NCBI GenBank assembly: GCA_038065395.1
Contig: JBBTRB010000004.1
Location: 135,178-199,177, forward strand
Origin: Patescibacteria group bacterium
Lineage (GTDB): Bacteria > Patescibacteriota > Minisyncoccia > Phycocordibacterales > PALSA-1337
Reading direction: 5' to 3'
Length of the DNA: 64,000 bases
Positions 4,829-61,465 of the stretch are shown here, piece by piece. The translations under genes and the position numbers were made by a program. Below the pieces are notes generated by a model that saw only the letters and a program-made list of their open reading frames with translations, was not told the origin of the DNA and ran no database searches. The first letter of the stretch is position 1. Every line of letters begins with the position of its first letter.

Positions 4829-4858
4829 TGTCATCCCCGCGAAGGCGGGGATCCAGGA
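4829..4858 (+). repeat. 30-bp GC hairpin repeat, copy 1 (tgtcatccccgcgaaggcggggatccagga), REP-like
   Basis: Exact copy also at 19848..19877. Exact inverted copy at 4988..5017. Variant at 62599..62625. Confidence 0.8.
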
Positions 4859-4987
4859 TCACTCCCAGTATATAGTCGACTTAGGTTATACGAACAATGA
4901 ACATGATAGGTTCGGCATTTACTTACAGGAGTAGTATCTAATGTTTTGTGGTTGTATAGACATTAAATAAGCAGCCACGCCCTTGCT

Positions 4988-5017
4988 CCTGGATCCCCGC
5001 CTTCGCGGGGATGACAA
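4988..5017 (-). repeat. 30-bp GC hairpin repeat, copy 2 (inverted orientation). Together with copy 1 it forms a perfect 30-bp inverted repeat around a 129-bp spacer
   Basis: tcctggatccccgccttcgcggggatgaca is the exact reverse complement of copy 1. Confidence 0.8.
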
Positions 5018-7745: not shown

Positions 7746-10700
7746 ATGAATTTTTCACTGAATTCCTATATAAAATACTGTTTAGGCTATCTTAGTCTCA
7801 CAAGACCTACAGGATTCAATAGAGGCACTTCAATAGACATAAAAATCCCTCAAGAATATTTCTCCTTAAGTAAACTTACGAACGGTGATACGGACGGGAG
7901 TTTGAGTGAGATTATCAACTTAGACTATTACTACAATACAGACCCGAAGGATGTTACTGAAGAAAACGAAGAAAAGTATAAAAAGGAAAAGGCACTTGCG
8001 CTACAGCTAGATGAAATATACAGCAAAGCGAAAAATGACACTTTCACAAAAGAAACCATATTGCGTTTCGGACGTTTTGATTTTGAAGTACTCGAAGAGC
8101 CTATAGTTGATACAGACGAAGAAGTTTTAGAAACCAAAAAAGACACACCAGTAGAAGAAGCAAAATTGGTATCAAAACAATTTTACCTTTTTTCATTGCC
8201 AGTAAGAATTGATAAGGAAAAAGACAAAAATAATATCGATAAATACACGATTATTCCAGTTGACTTTGAAGTTCGCCTAAACCTTCCTCCACTGTACGAA
8301 ATTTTTAGAACTTACAAAAAAGAAGATTTGGTGTACGAATTTTTAAACGAATATACCAAACTAGAAAGCGAAGGTGGTTTTTCTATTCCAATCCCTTCTG
8401 AAAAAATATTCTTAGACTTATGGCACATTCTTAAGGCAAAATTACGCCTGACTGAAGCAGTTTTTAATGAAAGTTCATTTACTCTTGATGACCTTCGATT
8501 AACTCTTGCCCCAAGAGCAAACTTCTTCTTGGTTGAAGATTTAACAAAGCTAGCGAAAGAAAAAGAGGAGCTTTTGGAAGGTACTTCGCTCTCGGGTTGG
8601 TTTTCTGAAGAAGGTCTAAACGTAAATTCGGATAGTTGTGAAGAAAAATCTCTATATTTTCCATTCCCATATGATAAGTTTCAAAGCGCAACCACTTCTC
8701 TTCTAGGTAATAAGGCTTCAATAATCCAAGGGCCACCAGGAACGGGAAAATCAGAGACTATTTCAAACATAATTTCTCATCTTGCTGTAAATAAAAACAA
8801 GGTTTTGTTCGTAAGTCAGAAACCCCAAGCTCTACGTGTTGTGAAGGATAAACTGAAAACCCTAGGCGTACCTCTTTTATTTGGATATATCCCGAGCGTT
8901 AAATTTGAGCAATCCCAGGATGAAGAGAGCGACACCATATCGTCGCAACTTGCAGCACTCGATACATATGGAGCTTATAAAGGTGTTGTAAAATCATCTT
9001 CTAATCTGAATAGCTTTACTCAAAATTCAGATGTTGTTTTCGATAAAAGAGATAAAATCATCTCCCTTGAAAGAGAGATATTTAGGCTTGAAGAACAGAA
9101 GCGTAACTACGATTTTCTTGACCAATTACCCTCAATAGATGAAGAGAGAATTATAACCGACCTCACGGAAGATTTATTTAGTGCTTATAAAAATATACTT
9201 CACAAAATATCGGCAAATAAAAATCTTATTGAGAATACCCACGACATATCAAAAAAATATAGTTTTGATAAAGAGCTATTTTGCGATAGTACTTTTTCAG
9301 ATTTACTCAAGACTGTATTGGCAGATGTTAAAAAGACTGGTTTCGATAGGTCATTTAAACTTGGAAGGTATATAAATAATCTTAGTAGAAAAATAAGACT
9401 CAAATCTCATCTAGGACAACTACCAAAAGAAATTTATGAAGAAATAGACAGCATATTAAAAAAGGACTCATCGCGGCATAGCGCAACAAAAGAATTGGAG
9501 CAGCTACTCGGTTTCTGTATTTATTGGGAAGCAATACAAGAAAATGAGAAGTTAGAAATATCTTTACAAGAAATCGAAAGTAACTTAAATCTGTCCAGAG
9601 ATGATTTTTCTACAATTTCTTCTTTTTTGAAAGAAAACTCTTTATCAGTATCGGAGCTTGTTGTTAAGCTTTCCGACCGCGCTCTCTTGAATCACAACCA
9701 GCAAAATTTTAGAGAAGATATTTCAACCCTTAAGAAAGAAGTTACGGGTAAAAATCAAATTACAAGGAAAGATATAGTGGCGCAATACCTATCTTCAATA
9801 ATCGAAGACAATATAAAAAATAATGTCTCACAGGTTAAAATATACAGAAAGCTTCAAGAGTTACAGAAAGCTTTTAAAAAATCAAAGAAAGCTTTCAAAA
9901 CTTTCGATAAGTTGAAAAATGACCCGACCAACTTTGAGACAATATTGAACATTGTTCCTGTCTGGATTATGGATTTAGACGATGCAAGTCGTCTTATTCC
10001 TTTAGTCTCAAACATGTTCGATTATGTCGTATTTGATGAAGCATCACAGTGCAATATTGCGTACACAATACCCTCAATGTATAGAGCGAAAAAGGCTGTA
10101 TTTGTTGGCGACCCAGAACAAATGAGAGACAGTACTGTAATGTTTAAATCGAACCAAGCATTTGACCAGCTCGCGAGCCGTTACAAAGTACCAGAGAGTC
10201 TACAAATAAAACCGACGGGTACAGCAGTGCAGTCTGTTTTGGATATTGCTAAAACAAGATTTGGAATACCCAAGATACTTCAATATCACTACCGTTCTCC
10301 GATGGAGTTGATTGGTTTTAGTAATAAGTATTTTTATGAACCGAAAGGCAAACGGCTTATTGCTTTGAATAACAAATATCTTACTTATAAGGATACAAAT
10401 CGGATAATGGTGCTTCATAATATCGAGTACAGCGGTATTGGAGAGATTGGCGATAATACAAACAATGCAGAGGCAGTGAAAGCACTGGAGCTTTATCTAG
10501 ATATGATTAAAGACCCAAAGTATGAAAATAAGAGTTTTGCCATACTCACGTTTTTTAATGACCAAGCAGAGCTAATCCGAAAGGTTTTTGAAGATAACAG
10601 GATTAAAGAAAGTGATAAATTAAAAATTGCTGTAATAGAAGGTATTCAGGGGGATGAAAAAGATATTGTTATATATTCTTTCGTTATTAGGGATGCCGCA

Positions 10701-11261
10701 CAAAAAAGACAGTATCGCCCTCTGACAGGAGAAACTGGAGATATGCAGGCCGATATTAACGCAGGTAGAGTAAACGTTGCTTTCTCAAGAGCAAAGCTTC
10801 AAGTTCACTGTATTATAAGTATGCCTATAGAAAAAATACCTTCAGGTATATGGATAAAGAAATACCTGGAATATGTGAGAGACAACGGTGAGGTATCTGC
10901 TTCCAGATTAACACTTCAAAAATTCGATAGTTACTTCGAGGAAGAATTCTATCATCTTCTTAAAAAGAAGCTTGGTAAGGGCTACACAATTCAAAACCAA
11001 GTCGAAAGTTGTGGCTTTAAAATTGATTTTGTTGCAACTAACACAAGTACTGGAAGACAGTTAGCAATTGAATGTGATGGGCCGACACACTTTAAAGACC
11101 ACATCGACGAGGCATATGGTATTTATGTTGATAGTGATATTCAGAGACAGAGGGTTTTGGAAAGTGCTGGTTGGACATTCTGTAGAATTGGATATTCCGA
11201 ATGGATTGAGAGCGAGGATAATAAAGAAACTATCGTTAAAAACATCAAACTACTGCTTTAA
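7746..11261 (+). CDS. SF1 (Upf1/DNA2-like) helicase fused to a C-terminal DUF559/Vsr-like (PD-(D/E)xK) endonuclease domain, with a ~330-aa N-terminal region. Hhe-like single-protein defence architecture
   Basis: Walker A IIQGPPGTGKSETI, Walker B/motif II YVVFDEASQC, motif VI RVNVAFSRAKLQVH. C-terminus GFKIDFVA...LAIECDGPTHF...QRQRVLESAGWTFCRIGYSEW matches the DUF559/Vsr-like fold signature. Confidence 0.75.
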   Translation: MNFSLNSYIKYCLGYLSLTRPTGFNRGTSIDIKIPQEYFSLSKLTNGDTDGSLSEIINLDYYYNTDPKDVTEENEEKYKKEKALALQLDEIYSKAKNDTFTKETILRFGRFDFEVLEEPIVDTDEEVLETKKDTPVEEAKLVSKQFYLFSLPVRIDKEKDKNNIDKYTIIPVDFEVRLNLPPLYEIFRTYKKEDLVYEFLNEYTKLESEGGFSIPIPSEKIFLDLWHILKAKLRLTEAVFNESSFTLDDLRLTLAPRANFFLVEDLTKLAKEKEELLEGTSLSGWFSEEGLNVNSDSCEEKSLYFPFPYDKFQSATTSLLGNKASIIQGPPGTGKSETISNIISHLAVNKNKVLFVSQKPQALRVVKDKLKTLGVPLLFGYIPSVKFEQSQDEESDTISSQLAALDTYGAYKGVVKSSSNLNSFTQNSDVVFDKRDKIISLEREIFRLEEQKRNYDFLDQLPSIDEERIITDLTEDLFSAYKNILHKISANKNLIENTHDISKKYSFDKELFCDSTFSDLLKTVLADVKKTGFDRSFKLGRYINNLSRKIRLKSHLGQLPKEIYEEIDSILKKDSSRHSATKELEQLLGFCIYWEAIQENEKLEISLQEIESNLNLSRDDFSTISSFLKENSLSVSELVVKLSDRALLNHNQQNFREDISTLKKEVTGKNQITRKDIVAQYLSSIIEDNIKNNVSQVKIYRKLQELQKAFKKSKKAFKTFDKLKNDPTNFETILNIVPVWIMDLDDASRLIPLVSNMFDYVVFDEASQCNIAYTIPSMYRAKKAVFVGDPEQMRDSTVMFKSNQAFDQLASRYKVPESLQIKPTGTAVQSVLDIAKTRFGIPKILQYHYRSPMELIGFSNKYFYEPKGKRLIALNNKYLTYKDTNRIMVLHNIEYSGIGEIGDNTNNAEAVKALELYLDMIKDPKYENKSFAILTFFNDQAELIRKVFEDNRIKESDKLKIAVIEGIQGDEKDIVIYSFVIRDAAQKRQYRPLTGETGDMQADINAGRVNVAFSRAKLQVHCIISMPIEKIPSGIWIKKYLEYVRDNGEVSASRLTLQKFDSYFEEEFYHLLKKKLGKGYTIQNQVESCGFKIDFVATNTSTGRQLAIECDGPTHFKDHIDEAYGIYVDSDIQRQRVLESAGWTFCRIGYSEWIESEDNKETIVKNIKLLL

Positions 11262-11275
11262 ATAATATCTTATTA

Positions 11276-12871
11276 TTGTATATGCCTCTCTTAACAAAAA
11301 CAGACTTTATTTTGTATCGTGAATGTCCAAATAATGTCTGGTTGAAAAGAAACAAACCAGAGGAGTACTGTAAGTTTGAGATTTCTGAATTTGAAAAATC
11401 ACTTGCTGTAATAGGTAATGATGTAGAAGAGTTGGCTCGAGGGATGTTTCCTTCGGGTTATCTTGTGGAGCGGCGAAGTGCTGGCGCACAAGAATTAACT
11501 CAAAAGTTAATTGCTGAAAAAACTCCTGTGATTTTCCAAGCAGTTTTTGCTACTGATAAATGTCTTGCGGCTACTGATGTTTTGCAATGGAATGATTCAG
11601 CCCAGAAATATGATATTTATGAAATAAAGATGTCATCTACGGAAGAGGATGACGAAGAAGAAGTGGAAGAAGGGAAGCCTAAGAAAGTTAATAAAAAGAA
11701 AGAACTCCAGTATGAATATGACCTCGCCTTTCAGGTAAATATTGCCGAGGCATGTGGTGTTCCACTACATAAAAAATACCTTGTTTGTTTGAACCGAGCA
11801 TATGTAAGGAATGGTGAGCTTGATTTTAGACCGAACCAGCTTTTCATTGTTGAGGATAAAACCGACGCAATCGAACTTATGAAAGACGTCGTTGGAGCGG
11901 AGATGTCTCAATCACAAAACTTCCTAGCGGCCACTGCGATGCCTCCCAGCCCTTGTCCTTGCTATTACAAAGGGCGCAACTCGCATTGTACGGCATTTAC
12001 ATACTTAAACCCGACCGTACCCGCATACAGTGTCCATGACTTGAATAGAATCGGAAATAGTAAGAAGTATCTAAAAGAATTACTCGATGAGGGCATTTTG
12101 GAGATTAGCGCTGTTCCTGTTGATGATAGACTTAAGCCAAAGCCCAAGAAAAGTACAGAGAAACCAAGTAAGCCGAAAAAGTTAAACCAAGTCTTAGTTC
12201 ACAAATCTCAAGAGCCTTTAATTGATATTGATTCGATAAAAAATGAACTTGGCGCACTCGTATTTCCACTTTATTTTCTCGATTATGAGACTTATCCGAC
12301 AGCAATTCCTCCTTATAATGGTTATCGACCATATCAGCAAATTGTCTTTCAGTATTCATTACACATCCTGAAAGATAAAGATTCCGAACCGATTTCTTTG
12401 GAATGTTTAATATTAGACGGTGAACCTTCTGAACGTATAGTTAAAAGCCTGCGTGAACATATTGGTGATACTGGAACTGTAATTTCTTGGTTTAAGACTT
12501 TCGAAAACTCTAGAAATCGTGAGCTGGCAACCCTAATACCGAGCCGTAGAGATTTTCTTCTCGGTCTTATTACTCGAACGTATGATTTGATGGATATAGT
12601 AGATGGTCAGCATTACGTACATCCTGGTTTTGAAGGCAGAGCATCAATTAAAAAAGTTTTGCCTGTTATTGCTCCACATCTATCTTATAAAAAACTATGT
12701 GTCCAGAGTGGTACAGATGCAATTGAAGCGTATAGGCAAATAACTAAAGGAGAGTTAACAGGTGAATTAGCCAAAGAAAAGGAGCTTCAAATGCTTGAAT
12801 ACTGCAAGTTGGATACCTACGCCATGTACGTTTTATGGAACTTCTTCAATAAGTTAGTGGATGAAAGTTAA
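11276..12871 (+). CDS. DUF2779-like protein with an N-terminal Cas4/RecB-like nuclease region and a Cys cluster
   Basis: N-terminus KTDFILYRECPNNVWL, central CPCYYKGRNSHC, C-terminal block YFLDYETYPTAIPPYNGYRPYQQIVFQYSLHIL typical of DUF2779. It starts 15 nt after the helicase stop, so is probably co-transcribed. Confidence 0.55.
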   Translation: MYMPLLTKTDFILYRECPNNVWLKRNKPEEYCKFEISEFEKSLAVIGNDVEELARGMFPSGYLVERRSAGAQELTQKLIAEKTPVIFQAVFATDKCLAATDVLQWNDSAQKYDIYEIKMSSTEEDDEEEVEEGKPKKVNKKKELQYEYDLAFQVNIAEACGVPLHKKYLVCLNRAYVRNGELDFRPNQLFIVEDKTDAIELMKDVVGAEMSQSQNFLAATAMPPSPCPCYYKGRNSHCTAFTYLNPTVPAYSVHDLNRIGNSKKYLKELLDEGILEISAVPVDDRLKPKPKKSTEKPSKPKKLNQVLVHKSQEPLIDIDSIKNELGALVFPLYFLDYETYPTAIPPYNGYRPYQQIVFQYSLHILKDKDSEPISLECLILDGEPSERIVKSLREHIGDTGTVISWFKTFENSRNRELATLIPSRRDFLLGLITRTYDLMDIVDGQHYVHPGFEGRASIKKVLPVIAPHLSYKKLCVQSGTDAIEAYRQITKGELTGELAKEKELQMLEYCKLDTYAMYVLWNFFNKLVDES

Positions 12872-13013
12872 TTTATTACAAGTATGGATTCTAGGCTTTT
12901 AATCGAGAAAGCGATAGAATCTCTATATTTAACAAGTTCGGAAAGCCACCCTATAGGGTCACAAAATTTGAATGAACTTATTTTTTTATAACTAATAAAA
13001 ATTTAAAATACAT

Positions 13014-13535
13014 ATGCTCAAAATAAATTTTTATCCTGAAAGTGATCTGAAAGACTTTGCTGAAGCTGTTACTATTTTTGAAAAAATGTGGCAAGAAGAA
13101 GGGGAACGAATCACTGATACGTGGGAACGGGTTACAGGATTGAAGTTCATTGAAACAGAAATAAATGCAGTTGTTGCTGATCTCAAGAGTTGCTCTCACC
13201 CACTTACGTTGAGGTATAGCAATGAATATGATTTCAAGAAATCTACATTGGTACATGAACTCGGTCATCGCATACTATACAGACGGGAAAGTAGTGCTGG
13301 GAACAAAACGACATTTGAGAGACATAAGTTTTTGTTTCTGGTTTTGTACGATGTTTTCTGTGAACTATATGGTCAAGAGTTTACTTATAAAGTTATAGCT
13401 TGGGATAGTAGTCTAGGAAAAGACAAAGGTAGGTCAATGTATGAAGATGCCTGGCAATGGGCATTACAATATAAGACAAAAGAAGAACGACAAAAAATCT
13501 ACAAGGAAATCTTGTCAGGAGAATATGTTTTCTAA
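13014..13535 (+). CDS. HExxH metallopeptidase-like protein, ImmA/IrrE (COG2856)-like
   Basis: Motif STLVHELGHRILY (HELGH) in a ~173-aa protein. AT-rich. Confidence 0.5.
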   Translation: MLKINFYPESDLKDFAEAVTIFEKMWQEEGERITDTWERVTGLKFIETEINAVVADLKSCSHPLTLRYSNEYDFKKSTLVHELGHRILYRRESSAGNKTTFERHKFLFLVLYDVFCELYGQEFTYKVIAWDSSLGKDKGRSMYEDAWQWALQYKTKEERQKIYKEILSGEYVF

Positions 13536-13594
13536 TTTTCGATCTAGTAACTATAAAGTTCCCAACTCTAACTTTAAGTAGTATACTAGTTGGA

Positions 13595-14215
13595 ATGGAT
13601 TCAAAACCTACTGTACGATATGCATTTATAGATGTTCAGAACACTGAAGGGACAGTCAGTCACCTTCTCGGTTTTGTTATTGATTGGCATAAGCTCTACC
13701 ATTACCTCAAAGAACAATGGAATTGCGAAAAGGTATTTTTCTATTCTGGTATTGACCAAGGTAATGAAGATAAAATCGACGAACATCTTGCTCTAAAGAA
13801 TCTCGGTTATGAGATGTCCATCAAACCGTATAAGATATATAAAAATTCCGACAAAATCATTAAAATCATGTGTTCAAAATGCGCGAATGAAATCGACTAT
13901 AAAATTGAAGGTGGTGTCCGATGGAAATCAAATTGTGATGCGGAGCTTTCTGTTGATGCAACAAATCTGGCAAAATCTGGTGCTGAATTTCTGATCTTTT
14001 CAGGAGACGGAGATTTTGAGTGTGTAATAAGGAATGCCGTAGAAAAGGGGGTGAAGGTATACGTGGTCTCCAGCGCACGGAAAGTAAAGACTGGCTTACG
14101 TTACTCTTCATCGAGATTCTCAACCAAACTACGCGAGCTCATTGCTGAGAAACGTGATCTGGTTATTTTCAAAGATATCAATGACTGGAAGATGAGGATC
14201 AAAAAAGATATTTAG
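13595..14215 (+). CDS. NYN/LabA-like (PIN-fold) nuclease-domain protein with an inserted Cys4 zinc-ribbon
   Basis: N-terminal YAFIDVQNT and FSGDGDF acidic motifs typical of NYN domains. Insert CSKCANEIDYKIEGGVRWKSNCD. Confidence 0.55.
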   Translation: MDSKPTVRYAFIDVQNTEGTVSHLLGFVIDWHKLYHYLKEQWNCEKVFFYSGIDQGNEDKIDEHLALKNLGYEMSIKPYKIYKNSDKIIKIMCSKCANEIDYKIEGGVRWKSNCDAELSVDATNLAKSGAEFLIFSGDGDFECVIRNAVEKGVKVYVVSSARKVKTGLRYSSSRFSTKLRELIAEKRDLVIFKDINDWKMRIKKDI

Positions 14216-17124: not shown

Positions 17125-17198
17125 CCCTAGGGTAGGCCTAGGGACGAAAGTGAGCCATGCTAGAAGTATTTCGTACCTTCCTAGGCCTACCCTAGGGA
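17125..17198. promoter_or_regulatory. Perfect 18-bp inverted repeat (ccctagggtaggcctagg ... cctaggcctaccctaggg) with a 38-nt spacer in the divergent gmhB/csp intergenic region. Candidate operator or 5'-UTR structure
   Basis: Read directly. Located ~90 nt upstream of the cold-shock gene start. Confidence 0.5.
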
Positions 17199-20972: not shown

Positions 20973-22247
20973 ATGAAAAAAATATCTATAGACGCACCTT
21001 TAGTAGCACTCGGTGGACTTATCATCTTGGCAGGAGGCATGCTCATCACGTCTTCGGTCACACAGATCGGTAGCATATATCGCACGATTGCCCAGGAGGC
21101 TCCGGCAGAGAGTCAGCTCGCACAAGTCGGTGGTGGTGGAGGCTTCGGCAATGAAGTCAAGGGTTGGGCATGGTCGTCGAACGTCGGCTGGATCAGTTTC
21201 AACTCTACTGACGCTGGTGCAGGTGGCGGTCCGTACAAAGTCTCGATCTCTACTACAACCGCAAATCCAACTCTCGGTAAGTTCGGTGGATATGCCTGGT
21301 CTCCGAACGTCGGCTGGATCAGTTTCAACTCCGCTGATGTCTCAGGTTGCCCAGAAGTCGGCACTCTCGATGGTTGCAACCCGGCAGTCAGTCTGACCAG
21401 TGGCGCAGTCACTGGCTATGCTCGTGTCCTGTCCATGAAGAATGAGTCTGGCGATGGTTGGGTACAACTTTCAGGTACCAACCACCCAAGTGCTTCGGGA
21501 GACTCGAGTGGTGTTACTTTCAACACAAGTACCAAAGACTTCACTGGCTATGCTTGGGAGCCTACTGCTTTGGGCTGGATACTCGTCGATGCGAAACTAG
21601 ATAGTGTGGCAAGTGTTCAGTCTGGTCTGCAGGTGACCTGTTCGAGTTCTGCTGCTCCTTCGAACACTGTCGCTGCAGGTGCATCCGTCACATTCACTGC
21701 TAATGTCACCGGAGGAACATCACCATATTCATATACCTGGGGTTCATGTGGTACGAATTCGAACACCTGTGCGGTGACATACGGTGCATCTGGTACTGGC
21801 CCATCACTCACGGTGACCGATAGTACTTCACCTACCGCACTTTCAAAATCTCCAAGTCCTTCTTGCCCAGTCATCACCGTCAACACGACCTCATCCGGCA
21901 CCAACCTCTTCATCGGCTCCAACATCTCAACTACCAAGACTTCTCATTCTCTGAGACAAGGCAACATCTTTGCTCTGAGTTGGACTGATGCCCCGACAGA
22001 CTATGATTCTTGTGAACTCACTATCAGTAACGGTGGAAATGGATATTGGACCAATGCGATAGATGCAGTATCTGGTAGTGGGGCACAAGCAGGGAACATT
22101 GCAGGGCTTCTGACGGCCGTGTCTTCAGGCGTGCAACGTGGTAACTACACATTCACTCGTACGTGTCATGATGCCGAAGCACTTCTTCCACCGCAGCCTT
22201 CCACAGCCACCCTCCGTATTGTGGGCGCCTCCGGCGAAGAATTCTAG
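20973..22247 (+). CDS. Secreted/membrane-anchored repeat protein with three GW...ISFNS units
   Basis: N-terminal hydrophobic segment. Repeated KGWAWSSNVGWISFNSTD / GGYAWSPNVGWISFNSAD. 28-bp identical DNA repeats at 21178..21205 and 21304..21331. Confidence 0.6.
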   Translation: MKKISIDAPLVALGGLIILAGGMLITSSVTQIGSIYRTIAQEAPAESQLAQVGGGGGFGNEVKGWAWSSNVGWISFNSTDAGAGGGPYKVSISTTTANPTLGKFGGYAWSPNVGWISFNSADVSGCPEVGTLDGCNPAVSLTSGAVTGYARVLSMKNESGDGWVQLSGTNHPSASGDSSGVTFNTSTKDFTGYAWEPTALGWILVDAKLDSVASVQSGLQVTCSSSAAPSNTVAAGASVTFTANVTGGTSPYSYTWGSCGTNSNTCAVTYGASGTGPSLTVTDSTSPTALSKSPSPSCPVITVNTTSSGTNLFIGSNISTTKTSHSLRQGNIFALSWTDAPTDYDSCELTISNGGNGYWTNAIDAVSGSGAQAGNIAGLLTAVSSGVQRGNYTFTRTCHDAEALLPPQPSTATLRIVGASGEEF

Positions 22248-22367
22248 GGGCTAGTCCAGGATCTTCACCTGCTTCGTTATTTTCTGCGCTCAAACTCTCA
22301 CCATATACGCGATATGGCTCGAGCTTTCGCTTGAAAATGCCTCGCATCTGAAAGATCCTGGATACGC
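22242..22367 (+). repeat. ~120-bp dispersed repeat, copy A
   Basis: Roughly 85% identical by manual alignment to the reverse complement of 53722..53838. Confidence 0.7.
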
Positions 22368-22440
22368 CCTTATGAGATGCTAGCCATTTTCACTAAAAAT
22401 GCTAGAATGAAGGCACGTTCGGATAGACAGAGTAGTTTCT

Positions 22441-25644: not shown

Positions 25645-26856
25645 CTACACCCCTCTCTCGGTGATCTTGATAAAGTTCTCGATGATGTCTCCCAAGTTCT
25701 TGGCGGATTCGTCAGCGCTGTCGAGGATGGATTTGAGTTCGGGGCCAACAGGGCCGGCAGTGCCTTTGCGGATGGATTCGAGCTCCCATTTGAGTGAAGT
25801 CAGGGGAGTACGGAGGTTGTGTTGAGTCGAGGTGATGAATTCATCCTTGGTCTTGTTGAGCTGTTCAAGCTCGGCTCGAGCACGCTTCTCGACTTCATAC
25901 GCCCTGCGCACATCACGCGTCTGATCGGCGATCCGCTCTTCGAGATGCTCGTTGATCTCTCGTACCCGTCCATAGGCGGTCTTGATCTCCCGTGCCAACT
26001 TCTCGATCTGCTCTCGCTGTCGTATCTCGCTCAACACACTCCGGATCAATACAATGCCGAGTACCACACTGACGACGAAGAGGCTCCCCTGGATCACGAT
26101 ATCCTCTCGTGTCTCTGACAATACCGTGCGGATCAGGATCACGATCCATAACGTGAAGGTGACCAACTCTACCGCGATGACCTTGATGTTAAAGAGATGG
26201 TGGCGGAGGATGGCGAGGGAGATGGCGGATATGAATATGATTGATCCGATAGAGTCTAGGGGTATTAAAGATGTAATTCCTAGTATCGGTAATATAAAAT
26301 TGACAATTCCAACAATAAAACCAAAACCATATAATCCGGAGGCGACATAGCCATATTGCCTTTTTTCAATTCCGCTAGCATCGATAAACGCCTTCGTGAT
26401 TAGGTAGAGTATATAGATACTTATTAATATGAATTGTAACCCAAAAATCGGAAATAAGATTCCGAACGTGCCATCAAATCCTCCTGTAAAACTTCGCTCA
26501 ACGTTGGCAATGATTAAATTTGTAGAGATTGATAAAAAATAAAGTAAAATTGTACTCGACCAGAGGATAGATTTTAATAAACCCCTCATTCCTTTCTTGT
26601 GAATAAAATAATAAACCCAAGTTAGGATGGTAGGAGTTAATATGATCCCTGTGGCATATGCATGTTTGACCCAGAAATTGACAGGTTCAAGCGTGATCAA
26701 CGTATTTGTAATAATCCAGTATGCTGTGACAGCTGAGACTACTGCAAACAACTGATTAATCTTATTTTTCTTGTCATTAAGTAACACGACAACGCCGAGT
26801 GATACCACCAGAATAGACAAGATGTAAATTATCAACGATGTGAAATCCAAATTCAT
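25645..26856 (-). CDS. Membrane sensor with an HisKA (DHp) domain but no HATPase domain. Truncated paralogue of the 28225..29838 histidine kinase
   Basis: Multi-TM N-terminus. H-box FITSTQHNLRTPLTSLK. Ends ~65 aa after the H-box. Junction motif LIRSVLSEIRQREQIEKLA matches LIRSVIKEIAQREKIQKLA of the paralogue. Confidence 0.7.
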   Translation of the reverse strand: MNLDFTSLIIYILSILVVSLGVVVLLNDKKNKINQLFAVVSAVTAYWIITNTLITLEPVNFWVKHAYATGIILTPTILTWVYYFIHKKGMRGLLKSILWSSTILLYFLSISTNLIIANVERSFTGGFDGTFGILFPIFGLQFILISIYILYLITKAFIDASGIEKRQYGYVASGLYGFGFIVGIVNFILPILGITSLIPLDSIGSIIFISAISLAILRHHLFNIKVIAVELVTFTLWIVILIRTVLSETREDIVIQGSLFVVSVVLGIVLIRSVLSEIRQREQIEKLAREIKTAYGRVREINEHLEERIADQTRDVRRAYEVEKRARAELEQLNKTKDEFITSTQHNLRTPLTSLKWELESIRKGTAGPVGPELKSILDSADESAKNLGDIIENFIKITERGV

Positions 26857-26916
26857 CCCAGTACTATACTATTTTTGGTTATACTTGGTAAGTCTTATTT
26901 GTGTTAATATAGTGGG

Positions 26917-27291
26917 ATGACTTTCGGGGAACATTTAATGTTGGATGGATACGAGGGTGACTCGGCATTACTAAATGATAAAGATCTTGTGCTCAAGTGC
27001 CTTAATGAGTTACCTGAGCTTTTAGGTATGAAGAAGCTTTCGAATCCTGAAATCTACTGGGCTGCAGGTAATGGTCAAAAAGACCCTGGGGGATGGAGCG
27101 GCTTTGTTGTAATTGAGGAGAGTCATATAAGTATTCATACTTTCCCTGGAAAAAGGTTTGTCAGTGCTGATGTCTATACTTGTCAGAATGGTTTAAATAC
27201 CACATACATCACGGATTATTTTAAGAAAAACTTCTTATTGAGCGACATTGAATCCAATTTTGTTAAGAGGGGAACTAGATATCCTGACTGA
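26917..27291 (+). CDS. speH: S-adenosylmethionine decarboxylase proenzyme (class 1b, SpeH/SpeD-like)
   Basis: Self-cleavage site context EESHISIHTFPG (ES|HISIHTWPE-type). Confidence 0.8.
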   Translation: MTFGEHLMLDGYEGDSALLNDKDLVLKCLNELPELLGMKKLSNPEIYWAAGNGQKDPGGWSGFVVIEESHISIHTFPGKRFVSADVYTCQNGLNTTYITDYFKKNFLLSDIESNFVKRGTRYPD

Positions 27292-27302
27292 ATCTAAGTT
27301 AT

Positions 27303-28235
27303 ATGGAAAATGTACTTATAAAACTCACTGAATTTAGTAATCAGATCGCTGGAAATTATAATCTCGATTTAGAGGTATTTTTTGTAATATATTTAACCTC
27401 ATTTATTCCTTTCTACCTTGGTTATTTTCTGATGATTTTTGGTAGTACAAGGAAACTGAGATTAAAAGATATATTTTCTTTGAACATAAGAAATAAGTTA
27501 AGGTGGAATGATCAATCAAGTTTAGGCTTACTAATCCATCTCTTTGGCAGGATTATGCCTTATGCCTATATAGTATGGTTTGGAAGAAACTTACCTATAT
27601 TGATGCAAGTCCTGGTTTGGGGATCTATAGTATTAAGTATATTTTTTGCAGTCAGAAAATTTTTTGTTGGAAAGTCTAGACCTCCTCTGGATATCGAGAT
27701 TGTCAAAAAAGAGATTATTGATGATCCGAAAGATAAAGAAAAGTTGTGGGAAATATATAATTCAAATTTTGAACACGTAAATAAGATTAGTCCGTGTAAA
27801 CAGAGTTTTGATCACGAGCATTTTATTGAGACGCTCACAAATCACTCAGTTAAGAAGTATCTAATCCTAAAGAAAGGAGGGGGCTTTTTGGGTATAGGCT
27901 TTATAACTTCTGATTTTAAGAATACGCCCTGGATAAGTGAAGATTATTTCAAAACAAATTTTCAATTTGAATACCAGAATAATCTAATGTTTTATTTCAT
28001 GGGTTTGGCGATTAGTTCAGAATTCCAAGGAAGAAAGTATTCAATACCACTACTTGAGTACATAATAGATGATCTTCCACATGGGGCAGTAATGGGATTT
28101 GATCACTCACGAAATATTAATCCACTCCTACACCACTTTACTAGAGTTGTTCGGCAGGCGAAAATAATGAAACGTATGTATCTAGACAGACAACATTACC
28201 ACGTTGTTACAAGAAAAAACTCTCATGATCTTTAA
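27303..28235 (+). CDS. Membrane protein with a C-terminal GNAT-like acyltransferase domain (tentative)
   Basis: 3-4 N-terminal TM helices. C-terminal GLAISSEFQGRKYSIPLLEY resembles GNAT motif A. AT-rich. Confidence 0.45.
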   Translation: MENVLIKLTEFSNQIAGNYNLDLEVFFVIYLTSFIPFYLGYFLMIFGSTRKLRLKDIFSLNIRNKLRWNDQSSLGLLIHLFGRIMPYAYIVWFGRNLPILMQVLVWGSIVLSIFFAVRKFFVGKSRPPLDIEIVKKEIIDDPKDKEKLWEIYNSNFEHVNKISPCKQSFDHEHFIETLTNHSVKKYLILKKGGGFLGIGFITSDFKNTPWISEDYFKTNFQFEYQNNLMFYFMGLAISSEFQGRKYSIPLLEYIIDDLPHGAVMGFDHSRNINPLLHHFTRVVRQAKIMKRMYLDRQHYHVVTRKNSHDL

Positions 28236-35059: not shown

Positions 35060-35476
35060 TTAGTAATCTCCCAAAATCATAACCATATACAAAAACCAAG
35101 AATACCAACCTATTCCAGCGGTTCCGATTATCCCTAGAATAATTCCCGCGGGTAGATTTTCTCTAATACTTTTTTTGAGTGAAATAAATACGCCTAAAAT
35201 TAAAAGTACAAATAATACCAGAATTGTGATTATGGTAAAGATGATATGCAGATCGGGATAAGTTTTCAATAGACAAGATTCCGGAATCTTAAAAATGCAG
35301 TATGATTCGAGTTGTCCTATTAGGAATGACCAGAGTCCTGCTGCTGTGTATAGATAAATTGACCAAAGAGTATTTTTATATTTTTTCATCTTCGTATTAT
35401 AACGTGCGAAGATATTAAGCACCAAAACCACGTGTGGATAATCATAGTATCCAGTATCTGATATAATAATCAGCAT
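35060..35476 (-). CDS. Small polytopic membrane protein
   Basis: 138 aa, 3-4 hydrophobic helices. Confidence 0.45.
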   Translation of the reverse strand: MLIIISDTGYYDYPHVVLVLNIFARYNTKMKKYKNTLWSIYLYTAAGLWSFLIGQLESYCIFKIPESCLLKTYPDLHIIFTIITILVLFVLLILGVFISLKKSIRENLPAGIILGIIGTAGIGWYSWFLYMVMILGDY

Positions 35477-37112
35477 GAATGATCTATCTGGAGAGAATAT
35501 ACAGGCATATACGGAAGTAGAGAATGTTCAAAGTTCTCAACATACGATGAGGCGTCAATTCATCACATATACTGGATTGTTAGCGATACTTCTCGGGGCT
35601 TTTAAAATATATTTCGATTCAAACGTATTAATAACAGGTCTACTATATGTATATCGCGGTATCCCAAATCCTCCTCAGCCAGGGTTCGCAGTCACCATAA
35701 TTGTGTATGTTGTATGTTTGGTATATATCATATTAGGTAAACGAATCATCGATCAAAAAGATAAAAATGTTCGAACTTTTATTCGTATACTGACGTTTAT
35801 TTCGATCATTCTGACCATATATGAAACTCTTAGACCAAATTTATTCGCAGCATTTATTGCTGCACTTGTTCCGTTTCTGGTCTGTGCGGACATACTTATA
35901 GGAAAGATATTGAAATCCGAGGAATTCAAAAAGAGTCTATATACACCCAATTATTATTTTAATATACCTACTACACTCATATATACAGGCATCACCATCT
36001 TACTGGTTATAGGTGCTTCGTTCCTGGAAAGAAAGATCTATCCTCCGGTAATCTGGGTGACATATCAGGATATGGATCATGGATTTCAAATTTCGTATCC
36101 TTCATGGTTGCGGTCTGTCAATTCGGCTGAACATAGGAATGGAACAAGAGAATATCTTATGCCTGAGGCATTCAACAGAATTATTGAGATCGCTGATGTT
36201 ATATCAACCACTACGAAACCTTATTTTAGAGGGTATATGAATATTACATCATCACTTTGGAGTCCTGAGAGTTCAGAGGATATGGTTGAAAAGTTGAAAA
36301 TGTCTATTGCCCAAAGGAGTTCATCGCCCCAAGCATCTACAACACCTGCCGTATATGAAGAGATTACTTTGGGAAATCAGAAATTTTATTCATTATTATA
36401 TTTGCCAACTGCCAAAAGAGAAAATTATACACGACAGATATACGTTTTTGTTCCGGCATATGACCTTTTCGGGATACATCAACCATCTAGAGTGCTTCTC
36501 TTGGAGTATACTCCAGCCAATTATCCAATCTTCCAGGAAATCTCCTCAACATTAAAAATGATCCCGATAGTTCCTACTGATGAAGGGTTATGGAATAGTA
36601 TCAGTGAACATACAGATATCTCATGGTGTGATCATATGGACAATGAAGAAATGAGATATGCTTGTCGTGTGCAAATACGCGGATATCCTATTGTAGAAAA
36701 ATATCCTTTAAATTTGGACATGATTCTTGGTCAAGATGGAACGGTTGAAATTATAGGCACATCCACTCTCAAGATTTCAACTTCAAAGCTTGACTCTAAT
36801 GCAACACAATTGGGATCTTGGATAATGTTTGCAACCACCACTGGCGAAGGGTTGTGGGCAATTAATTTTGACGCTACATTTGAAAATAGTGAGAAAGCGG
36901 AGAGTTTACTTTCTATGTATTGGGGTGACGAGAAGATCGGAAGTATCGACGGAAGAATGGTGTCCATGTCAGGCGATCTAGGTCCTTGGTTCTTCGCCTC
37001 GACTACTAAAAATAATAGTCTATATCCATTCGGTTTTCGTCTGGATTCATTTGTATCTGCGGGTACCACCTCCGTAATCATAAAGAACATCAGAGCAGAA
37101 TCTTTCCGATAG
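35475..37112 (+). CDS. Membrane protein (multi-TM N-terminus) with an extracytoplasmic C-terminal domain paralogous to the C-terminus of the 32288..35002 protein
   Basis: WAINFDATFENSEKAESLLSMYWGDEKIGSIDGRMVSMS aligns with VNFVSFDARYSGVQGSRNILTVYWDTNIIGQIDEKVVSS. FGFRLDSF aligns with LGFRVDPY. Confidence 0.6.
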   Translation: MNDLSGENIQAYTEVENVQSSQHTMRRQFITYTGLLAILLGAFKIYFDSNVLITGLLYVYRGIPNPPQPGFAVTIIVYVVCLVYIILGKRIIDQKDKNVRTFIRILTFISIILTIYETLRPNLFAAFIAALVPFLVCADILIGKILKSEEFKKSLYTPNYYFNIPTTLIYTGITILLVIGASFLERKIYPPVIWVTYQDMDHGFQISYPSWLRSVNSAEHRNGTREYLMPEAFNRIIEIADVISTTTKPYFRGYMNITSSLWSPESSEDMVEKLKMSIAQRSSSPQASTTPAVYEEITLGNQKFYSLLYLPTAKRENYTRQIYVFVPAYDLFGIHQPSRVLLLEYTPANYPIFQEISSTLKMIPIVPTDEGLWNSISEHTDISWCDHMDNEEMRYACRVQIRGYPIVEKYPLNLDMILGQDGTVEIIGTSTLKISTSKLDSNATQLGSWIMFATTTGEGLWAINFDATFENSEKAESLLSMYWGDEKIGSIDGRMVSMSGDLGPWFFASTTKNNSLYPFGFRLDSFVSAGTTSVIIKNIRAESFR

Positions 37113-37134
37113 TAAGACGTCTTGTAGGAGTACA

Positions 37135-37326
37135 CTAAAATCTCCACCCTAGGCACTTAATTTCCAGTGCAACGGGTTAGTTACCATTAAGGTACGAATT
37201 GCCAGGACGATCCCACAGCTGGACCAGGTGACCATCTCAAACCATCTTGGCTTTATTGAATGATCCCTGCGACTTACGCTCTGAGACCCTTTAATATATC
37301 TCTGGATTTCTAAGGTGGAGATTTTA
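37135..37326. ncRNA. Candidate structured noncoding element (~190 nt) closed by a 13-14 bp inverted repeat (ctaaaatctccacc / ggtggagattttaa). Identity unknown
   Basis: Intergenic between convergently ending and starting + strand genes. No ORF. The long closing stem was read directly. Confidence 0.35.
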
Positions 37327-37396
37327 ATGAACTCCGTTTAATTATACAGGCGGTCACATGTTTTACAAGTCGAGTCTAAACAAGTAGACTTATCAT

Positions 37397-38515
37397 ATGC
37401 AAAACCCTCTGATCATAGGCCTCATCATCGCACTTCTGATAGTCGTCGTACTGGTCATACTTCTCCTACGACGCAAGGATGGCTCTACGGTTGCGGGAGA
37501 GGGCACAGACGCTATGAAGCTGGTTCTGGAACAGATGAATGCCAATATGCACGAATTGTCACGGACGCTCGATCGCAAGGTGGGGGATCTGACCAAGACC
37601 GTTGATGCCAAGATCGGAGATTCGTCACGTTCGATGCAGGAGTCCGTACGAGTACAGCTCTCCGAGTCCTCCAAGCTGATCAAAGAAGTCACAGCAGGAC
37701 TGACCAAGCTCGATGAGACCAACAAGCAAGTGGTGTCTTTCGCCGATCAGCTACAAAATCTCCAGGATATCCTCAAGAATCCCAAACAGCGTGGAGTGCT
37801 GGGAGAATACTATCTCGAAACACTTCTGAAAAACGTCTTACCTCCAGGGGGGTACCAGATGCAATATCAGCTCGGCAAAGACGAGAGTGGCAAAGACTTG
37901 ATCCCCGACGCAGTCGTCTTTGTGAAAGAAAAGATCATTCCAGTGGACTCCAAGTTCTCTCTGGAGAATTACAACAAATACATCGAGGCACGAGAACCTG
38001 CTGACAAAGAACGCTTCGAGAAACTCTTTGTCTCGGATCTCAAGAACCGCATCGTCGAAACATCCAAATACATCCAGCCATCCAAGAACACCATGGACTT
38101 TGCTTTCATGTTCATCCCGCATGAGGCTATCTACTACGACCTTCTGATCGGCAAAGTCGGTGGAGCAGGCGAAGACAGTGACAACCTCATCCAGCGTGCC
38201 GCTGGCAAGTACAAAGTGATCATCGTGTCACCGACATCATTCCTGGCATATCTACAGACAGTACTCCAAGGTCTCAAGGCTCTGCAGATCGAAGAAACTG
38301 CCAAAGACATCGTCAAACGTGTCGACGAGCTCGGTACGCATCTCAAGAAATACGAGGAGTATCACAGCAAGCTCGGTGTGTCACTCTCGACGGTGGTCAA
38401 CCATTACAATAGTTCTGGCAAAGAACTCAAGAAAGTAGACAAAGACGTCCTGCGTATCACCGGCTCTGCACCGGGTATCGAGATACCGATGATCGAACGA
38501 CCGGAAGGGGAGTAA
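37397..38515 (+). CDS. rmuC: DNA recombination protein RmuC
   Basis: N-terminal TM, coiled coil, then NPKQRGVLGEYYLETLLKNVLP and PDAVVFVKEKIIPVDSKF blocks typical of RmuC. Confidence 0.8.
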   Translation: MQNPLIIGLIIALLIVVVLVILLLRRKDGSTVAGEGTDAMKLVLEQMNANMHELSRTLDRKVGDLTKTVDAKIGDSSRSMQESVRVQLSESSKLIKEVTAGLTKLDETNKQVVSFADQLQNLQDILKNPKQRGVLGEYYLETLLKNVLPPGGYQMQYQLGKDESGKDLIPDAVVFVKEKIIPVDSKFSLENYNKYIEAREPADKERFEKLFVSDLKNRIVETSKYIQPSKNTMDFAFMFIPHEAIYYDLLIGKVGGAGEDSDNLIQRAAGKYKVIIVSPTSFLAYLQTVLQGLKALQIEETAKDIVKRVDELGTHLKKYEEYHSKLGVSLSTVVNHYNSSGKELKKVDKDVLRITGSAPGIEIPMIERPEGE

Positions 38516-39438: not shown

Positions 39439-39467
39439 AAAATCCCTCAGATATCTGAGGGATTTTT
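39439..39467 (+). terminator. Rho-independent terminator (aaaatccctcaga tatc tgagggatttt)
   Basis: Perfect 13-bp stem plus T-run directly after rplU. Confidence 0.85.
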
Positions 39468-45037: not shown

Positions 45038-45077
45038 GAAGGCAGGGTAACTAGAGAAAAGTAACTGGTAACAAGAA

Positions 45078-45108
45078 AAAGCCCCTGGTTTTTGCCAAGG
45101 GTTTTTCT
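45078..45108. terminator. Bidirectional terminator between convergent rplI and rpmA (A-run, GC hairpin, T-run), nested in a larger 20-bp inverted repeat (45055..45130)
   Basis: aaaaagcccctggtttttgccaagggttttt read directly. Confidence 0.6.
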
Positions 45109-45152
45109 ACTTTCTAGTTACGAGTTACTTTTCTCCTATTACACTCCTTCAC

Positions 45153-61085: not shown

Positions 61086-61180
61086 GAGGCGTAGATTTTA
61101 TCGTTTCTTGAGACTAAATTCATCAGGAATTTATCTCGGGTTGCTAAAGTTTCTGGGCGGAAGATCATATCTTCCGCCGT

Positions 61181-61251
61181 GGACCAGTTCGCTGGTGCGA
61201 AAATCTTGGCTCGTCACCTAAGATTCGGGGGTTCGATTCCCCTCTGGTCCA
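61181..61251 (+). tRNA. tRNA-like element with a non-canonical fold (possible tRNA pseudogene or degenerate tRNA)
   Basis: 7-9 bp acceptor (g)tGGACCAG/CTGGTCCa(c). T-arm GGGGG-TTCGATT-CCCCT. 4-bp D-stem with a 4-nt loop. Anticodon stem is over-long and bulged with loop CTCGTCA, so anticodon assignment is unsafe. Preceded by the palindromic minihelix ggcggaagatcatatcttccgcc (61157..61179). Confidence 0.35.
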
Positions 61252-61465
61252 CAAACTTGACTTTTTATAATTAAGTAAACTATAATTATCAAGTCGATAT
61301 ATTCGACTGGTGGAACCGGTATGGGAAATCACCCTGACTGGCCCGTAAATTCTTACCTCGTGTAAGGATTTACATGACGACACAAAGTCCCTTCGGGGGC
61401 TTTTGTGTTTGTGTGTTGACAGGCTCGGTTAATGGGGGTAGTTTTGGGATAGACAACCAACAACG

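Follow-up and report, generated by a model that had tools for sequence, protein, structure and literature searches.

A 284-nt gap between a 545-aa open reading frame (ORF) and rmuC, in a Patescibacteria genome (Parcubacteria/Paceibacteria, Taylorbacteria-like) assembled from Hainich groundwater well H41, holds an element whose two ends pair with each other in a long closing helix, P1. We propose, with a probability of about one half, that the element specifies a lineage-specific, independently transcribed non-coding RNA of about 200–210 nt, read from the minus strand, and that P1 doubles as a bidirectional terminator/insulator. From the sequence features described below, we infer that such an RNA is made, where it would end, and what it may do. 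Almost nothing is known of non-coding RNAs and transcription signals in CPR/Patescibacteria, and the literature on CPR 6S RNA, small RNAs, hairpins, and leaderless mRNAs yielded nothing pertinent. Throughout, the window is the whole stretch of DNA analyzed (64,000 nt); the main features at and near the element are the following:

35456–37396, no strand assigned: lineage-specific 1.9-kb block comprising the 545-aa ORFan, the element, and promoter DNA by rmuC; absent from the closest relative found
35475–37112, plus strand: 545-aa ORF
37127–37335, minus strand: candidate RNA over its full length of about 209 nt, numbered from RNA position 1 at 37335 to position 209 at 37127
37368–37341, minus strand: sigma-70-type promoter TTGTAA-16-TATAAT, 10 of 12 positions matching the consensus
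37362–37390, plus strand: rmuC promoter-like site TTTACA-17-TAGACT, with TAGACT at 37385–37390
37397–38515, plus strand: rmuC (Pfam RmuC, E 2e-53)
39439–39466, both strands: canonical bidirectional terminator between rplU and recR, AAAA-TCCCTCAG-ATAT-CTGAGGGA-TTTT

The inverted repeat closing the element is present and exceeds the 13–14 bp reported in a preliminary description of this DNA: the full arms (37127–37152 and 37310–37335) reach 26 nt, are 88% complementary with 23 Watson–Crick pairs, and enclose 157 nt. The left arm ctaaaatctccacc sits at 37135–37148, where it had been placed, and the right arm ggtggagattttaa at 37314–37327, one position away from the 37313–37326 claimed; Watson–Crick pairs form at 13 of the 14 reported positions in one contiguous run, taaaatctccacc (37136–37148) with ggtggagatttta (37314–37326). 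The inner "bulge" turns out to be a single C–A mismatch on the plus strand (37149/37313), which is a G–U pair on the minus strand. Since by our own calculation about 0.4 perfect 13-nt inverted repeats within 400 nt are expected per 64 kb, the 13-nt core alone would not be significant. For arms matching at 23 of 26 positions, the same kind of calculation predicts about 4e-4 chance occurrences per window.

Folding distinguishes the two strands. The minus strand reaches a minimum free energy (MFE) of −86.1 kcal/mol (z −8.2) and the plus strand −60.4 kcal/mol (z −3.3), with 0 of 200 dinucleotide shuffles as good in either case. Both the MFE and the centroid predictions for the minus strand give a three-way junction closed by P1, which comes to 25 bp (RNA 1–26 with RNA 184–209); the junction strands measure 4 nt on the 5' side and 49 nt on the 3' side, the latter holding two hairpins, P6 and P7. 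In RNA order, the parts of the predicted fold are as follows:

37310–37335, minus strand, RNA 1–26: 5' arm of P1, GGAGUUCAUUAAAAUCUCCACCUUAG; mean pair probability 0.99
37202–37305, minus strand, RNA 31–134: long irregular hairpin arm P2–P5, 104 nt; pair probabilities 0.80–1.00
37182–37194, minus strand, RNA 142–154: small hairpin P6, UACC-UUAAU-GGUA; pair probability 0.78
37153–37170, minus strand, RNA 166–183: hairpin P7, GCACU-GGAAAUUA-AGUGC; pair probability 0.99
37127–37152, minus strand, RNA 184–209: 3' arm of P1, CUAGGGUGGAGAUUUUAGUGUACUCC, including GGUGGAGA and then UUUU; terminator-like core

The ccagg and cagctgg motifs previously listed as internal repeats do exist, as 5–7-mers within the 3' strands of helices P2–P4; scanning for repeats with a seed of 7 nt gave no internal direct repeat in the element.

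The minus-strand fold contains 70 pairs, 8 of them G–U, and when it is mirrored on the plus strand, 62 of the 70 stay canonical. All 8 wobble positions are G–U on the minus strand; the minus-strand fold has no helix mismatch of the A–C type that would favor the plus strand, and the plus-strand helix has two C–A mismatches. The closing helix supplies most of the total z-score and the signal of the interior is modest, the 157 nt without P1 scoring z −2.4 when read as minus-strand RNA and +0.5 as plus-strand RNA; the strand difference of about 25 kcal/mol corresponds to only about 2.5 standard deviations of the sliding-window spread across the genome. Taken at this strength, the fold indicates that an RNA would most likely be made from the minus strand, divergent from rmuC, and it would therefore not be an upstream leader of rmuC. 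The preliminary description of a candidate structured non-coding RNA upstream of rmuC thus stands as regards strong structure, non-coding character, intergenic position, and the long helix between 5' and 3' ends, but its orientation is likely the opposite one, divergent from the gene.

The position of the minus-strand promoter is consistent with this orientation. The predicted start is G37335/37334, at which pairing in P1 begins, and the −10 box ends 6–7 nt ahead of it. Sites as good as this one occur about 10 times per 16 kb, counting both strands, and from that density we estimate a chance of about 0.003 that a promoter would be so placed at either end of the element. Exact TATAAT is rarer in the window than expected (32 sites versus 49), and 6 of the 32 are followed, 5–8 nt downstream, by the start codon of an ORF no shorter than 60 aa, as for the 545-aa gene, cysS, and a small membrane gene. 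Boxes of this kind stand 6–8 nt ahead of start codons that lack a Shine–Dalgarno sequence, at these positions:

35462 and 49801, plus strand: TATAAT ahead of a start codon
35401, 43311, and 49621, minus strand: TATAAT ahead of a start codon

TATAAT boxes situated just ahead of start codons imply leaderless mRNAs, and many genes, including the 545-aa ORF, cysS, and rmuC, look leaderless; the promoter-like site of rmuC, for its part, ends 6 nt ahead of the rmuC ATG, in a leaderless layout. Because exact TATAAT boxes precede leaderless start codons in this genome, the TATAAT at 37341 is probably functional as well, and no start codon lies at the predicted 5' end of the minus-strand RNA. The minus-strand promoter and the rmuC promoter-like site stand back to back with overlapping −35 boxes, and for that reason the firing of one could compete with that of the other.

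The core of P1 reads AAAA-UCUCCACC...GGUGGAGA-UUUU identically on both strands, with only four U and no U-rich tail beyond them. Bidirectional intrinsic terminators of this genome are built in the same A4–stem–U4 way, and P1 is therefore the probable 3' terminator of the small RNA; acting on the opposite strand as well, it would stop transcription of the convergent 545-aa gene and insulate rmuC. The same layout also fits a possible, if unlikely, alternative, in which the element is a large intergenic hairpin that serves as terminator/insulator only, has no RNA product that matters, and lies beside an incidental promoter. It would then be one of many fast-evolving long-stem repeats located just 3' of genes in these Parcubacteria, which could originate by local inverted duplication or template switching, and its start 15 nt past the stop codon of the 545-aa gene speaks for this role. 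However, a "loop" of 157 nt is far from that of a canonical intrinsic terminator, a compact hairpin with a short loop, and our terminator scan makes no call at the element. On the plus strand, that of the gene to be terminated, the two C–A mismatches and the unstructured interior also speak against a hairpin with this sole role, which moreover leaves the well-placed TATAAT promoter unexplained.

How much weight the hairpin-only explanation deserves depends in part on how common such structures are, and here the surrounding DNA speaks in its favor. The window contains at least five other unique structured elements bounded by inverted repeats, with arms of 18–44 nt and z from −5 to −11.5:

1101–1267: intergenic inverted-repeat element
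4829–5016: intergenic inverted-repeat element (I2)
17125–17197: intergenic inverted-repeat element
22245–22372: intergenic inverted-repeat element
45044–45145: intergenic inverted-repeat element

Four of these five (I1, I2, I3, and I7) start no more than about 70 nt past the stop codon of a plus-strand ORF. We found no sequence similarity among the five or between any of them and the present element, and among all six, the present one alone has an exact TATAAT next to it. Relatives tell a similar story on the other side of rmuC, where at least seven loci carry unrelated elements of 100–190 nt with near-perfect arms of 15–37 bp immediately downstream of the gene; runs of A and of T are frequent in these arms, and none of the elements matches an Rfam family:

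L010, 4085–4208: inverted-repeat element directly after rmuC
L011, 4054–4212: inverted-repeat element directly after rmuC
L032, 3985–4086: inverted-repeat element directly after rmuC
L035, 4058–4155: inverted-repeat element directly after rmuC
L036, 2400–2532: inverted-repeat element directly after rmuC
L041, 2423–2555: inverted-repeat element directly after rmuC
L074, 4062–4189: inverted-repeat element directly after rmuC

Given how widespread long-stem hairpins are, both here and in the relatives, the closing helix by itself implies no RNA gene. What sets the present element apart is the combination of an adjoining exact TATAAT, a strand bias, and a structured interior.

A scan of the DNA upstream of rmuC in 81 relatives for similarly strong folds returned four matches, which we read as a small minus-strand ORF with its ATG at about 2872 (L062), tRNA genes (L072), and unrelated palindromic repeats (L029 and L075). 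As a separate observation, the arms of I2 (4829–4861 and 4984–5016), TGTCATCCCCGCGAAGGCGGGGATCCAGGA, closely resemble a palindromic unit at about 757–850 of L029, TGTCATTCTCGCGAATGCGGGAATCCAGG, which sits upstream of rmuC in that distant relative; judging from the two sequences, these look like members of a dispersed palindromic repeat family common to these genomes.

To place the element among its relatives, we used 80 rmuC loci from GTDB together with the six closest RmuC loci from a protein database (L083–L088), each covering a few kb on either side of rmuC (3 kb requested), for a total of 86 loci and about 600 kb. Both nhmmer and a covariance model of 213 positions built from the predicted fold (R1) found only self matches in the window and these 86 loci. 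With blastn, the element has no second copy in the 64-kb window (self only) and no match in phage and plasmid collections. Pattern searches gave no hit for the exact junction 19-mer or for a degenerate single arm in IMG/VR, nor for the paired arms with a gap of 140–170 in IMG/VR and JGI metagenomes; the loop/junction pattern with free stems had a single match in JGI and IMG/VR together, inside a carbamoyltransferase-like ORF, which we attribute to chance. Within the DNA searched, the element thus appears restricted to one groundwater Patescibacteria species, for which seven contigs encode the same RmuC protein (the longest being 0.76 Mb).

None of the six closest loci has the element at the position upstream of rmuC. 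In L083, the closest relative found (RmuC 89% identical), rmuC is directly preceded by a minus-strand gene for a 90-aa membrane protein, and in the relatives with 76–79% identical RmuC, an Lnb_N-domain gene lies 55–61 nt from rmuC. Alignment of the region upstream of rmuC in L083 with the window gives only noise. The promoter and start of the small membrane gene of the window (about 35389–35455, minus strand), by comparison, align clearly with about 1122–1185 of L083, which is within about 60 nt of rmuC in that genome, and window 35456–37396 is therefore an inserted or replaced block. More generally, what lies between the small membrane gene and rmuC differs from one relative to another: nothing, an Lnb_N gene, or the ORFan with the candidate RNA. 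The 545-aa protein of the block is a membrane protein with no Pfam domain found and an ORFan, matching only itself in a search of 5.8 billion proteins. Over its C-terminal ~60 residues it is similar to the C-terminal part of the neighboring 904-aa DUF3466-type surface protein. Elsewhere in the window, the G+C content is low at 8001–14000 and 26001–28000 (0.34–0.38, compared with about 0.47 in the remainder), and these stretches may be further acquired or variable islands.

The location at the edge of a 1.9-kb block missing from L083 invites another explanation, namely a mobile element of the miniature inverted-repeat (foldback) kind, intact or as a remnant, whose arms would be terminal repeats that a transposase formerly recognized. 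Correia-type elements have terminal inverted repeats comparable in size to 26 nt, so that the 26-nt arms with 88% complementarity and the overall size would suit such an origin, as would the fact that L082, a low-coverage contig of the same species, breaks off inside the element. Nonetheless, we consider a mobile element improbable: neither the window nor the ~600 kb of related loci contains a second copy, the flanks (...cttgta and gtttaa...) show no direct repeat and hence no target-site duplication, the arm patterns find nothing in IMG/VR or JGI metagenomes, and the restriction of wobble pairs to one strand points to selection on RNA and not on DNA ends. Positions 1–90 of L082 (3x coverage) correspond to window 37251–37340. 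At window 37288 this contig has T in place of G, a change that would break a G–C pair in P3; because of the 3x coverage, the difference is uninformative, and either a sequencing error or variation between strains could account for it.

The absence of the element next to rmuC in close relatives bears also on the suggestion, made when the stretch was first described, of a 6S-like or other housekeeping RNA. 6S RNA is about 200 nt long with a long closing helix, and CPR housekeeping RNAs can escape standard models; the size and the closing helix of the element, together with this known blind spot, are what a divergent 6S-like RNA has to recommend it. An Infernal/Rfam scan agrees with the preliminary description, which had matched no known consensus: we obtained no relevant match either for the whole window at the gathering score or for 37000–37500 at E ≤ 10 with lax filters, the families covered by the latter including 6S, SRP, RNase P, and tmRNA. 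The predicted three-way junction, with strands of 4 and 49 nt, stands in place of the central bubble of 6S; relatives with RmuC 89% and 76–79% identical do not have the element at this locus; and it lies in a lineage-specific block with an ORFan. This absence at the rmuC locus of relatives and the association with an ORFan block make a housekeeping RNA very unlikely, and the comparison with 6S is not supported. SRP, RNase P, tmRNA, and tRNA are rejected in the same way, by the lack of an Rfam family match and by ARAGORN, which reports nothing in 36900–37600.

Several other known classes were considered and set aside. Like a retron non-coding RNA, the element has a1/a2-type flanking inverted repeats around a candidate RNA in the 150–250 nt range, but the neighboring genes include no reverse transcriptase domain, and the minus strand past the element is only the antisense of the 545-aa gene, with no coding gene. 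A bridge or omega RNA would call for a recombinase or TnpB neighbor, neither of which is present; a template of a diversity-generating retroelement is rejected, with no template/variable repeat pair and no reverse transcriptase; and a riboswitch is rejected, with no gene downstream on the RNA strand.

The absence of an ORF that had been noted inside the element holds for the plus strand, but the minus strand contains one, inside the candidate RNA:

37149–37235, minus strand: 28-codon ORF, MVTWSSCGIVLAIRTLMVTNPLHWKLSA; AUG at RNA 101–103 paired in P4, stop codon in P1

This ORF raises the prospect that the transcript is a type I toxin-like peptide mRNA, silenced by the closing helix and internal pairing as in hok and aapA1. 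A long-distance interaction between 5' and 3' ends is typical of hok/aapA1-like mRNAs, and the pairing of the ends, the location of the ORF on the same strand, and the burial of its AUG and stop codon in helices all accord with such silencing. The ORF itself is less convincing. It lacks a Shine–Dalgarno sequence and lies away from the 5' end, although the promoters of this genome look leaderless; the peptide is weakly hydrophobic with an arginine in mid-segment, and chance alone would readily give an ORF of this length (about 0.26 per ATG, our own calculation). In addition, no plus-strand antitoxin promoter is found in or beside the element except that of rmuC. We regard a toxin-like peptide as unlikely, and the reading of the whole element as a toxin mRNA as highly improbable.

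Two further RNA candidates came to light at the far end of the window. Positions 61179–61252 (plus strand) form a tRNA-like cloverleaf (MFE −36.6, z −4.9) whose acceptor stem has 9 bp, whose anticodon-like stem has 8 bp, and whose T-loop is GUUCGAUU; it is missed by ARAGORN and the Rfam tRNA model and has only a weak tmRNA match (21 bits). Directly after it, at 61255–61410 (plus strand), a strong promoter, TTGACT-18-TATAAT, precedes about 118 nt of structured RNA with a canonical terminator, ACACAAAGUCCCUUCGGGGGCUUUUGUGUUU, at its end and a weak permuted-tmRNA match (E 0.15). The latter is a candidate for an unannotated small RNA.

Returning to the minus-strand RNA that we favor, its features combine into the following course of events. 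The promoter at 37368–37341 would fire, with transcription starting at G37335/37334, where the 5' arm of P1 begins; the transcript would then fold so that P1 encloses the three-way junction formed with the P2–P5 arm and hairpins P6 and P7. Pairing of the 5' and 3' ends could render the RNA nuclease resistant or, alternatively, a substrate of RNase III. Should the RNA have a function in trans, our best guess is protein binding, which is suggested by the closed multi-arm fold and by the fact that no complementary target of the candidate RNA was found in the window.

A more far-reaching idea, which we offer as a long shot, is that the element is the first recognized example of a class of "self-closed" Parcubacteria small RNAs, in which a promoter fires into the 5' arm of a bidirectional-terminator helix and the RNA is its oversized, structured loop. 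If this were so, the unique long-stem hairpins of 100–200 nt could constitute a fast-evolving reservoir that gives rise to small RNAs, and such RNAs might serve purposes particular to one species and linked with variable islands of surface-protein genes. Regardless of that idea, long-stem intergenic hairpins are frequent in these genomes and turn over fast, and in this lineage the mere presence of a long closing stem says little in favor of a housekeeping RNA. A single orphan locus opens no major question, and the main gain lies in the correction of the 6S-like reading; at the same time, the locus provides a compact testable case, with a predicted promoter, a closed RNA of 209 nt, and a terminator-like helix within about 240 bp.

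Comparison with known systems shows which properties the element shares and which are its own. It resembles 6S RNA (RF00013) in its length of about 200 nt and in the pairing of its 5' and 3' ends in a long closing helix, but 6S RNA is a rod with a large two-sided central bubble and a terminal stem, whereas the element is predicted to form a three-way junction, has no match to the covariance model, and is not conserved at the locus in close relatives. Type I toxin mRNAs such as hok and aapA1 are likewise structured transcripts of about 200 nt, closed over a long distance from 5' to 3' end and containing a short ORF; the element differs from them in having neither a ribosome-binding site nor a promoter for an antisense RNA, and in the weak hydrophobicity of its peptide. 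With miniature elements of the Correia/ERIC type it shares a size of about 100–200 bp, an intergenic location, terminal inverted repeats of about 26 nt, and the formation of long hairpins when transcribed, but it is single copy in the DNA searched, lacks a target-site duplication, and has strand-biased wobble pairs. The genome's own bidirectional intrinsic terminators, exemplified by 39439–39466, have the same succession of A4, an 8-bp G+C-rich stem, and T4, and both they and the element lie between converging transcription units; their loop is 4 nt, however, compared with a structured 157 nt in the element, whose pairing also runs 9 nt past the A and T tracts. A stand-alone gene for a trans-encoded sRNA, finally, is similar in being intergenic, non-coding, about 200 nt long, and species specific, with a well-spaced sigma-70-type promoter and, at the predicted 3' end of the transcript, a G+C-rich helix and then U residues. 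Compared with such a gene, the element is distinguished by a terminator helix with only four U that uses the very 5' end of the transcript and so encloses the entire RNA.
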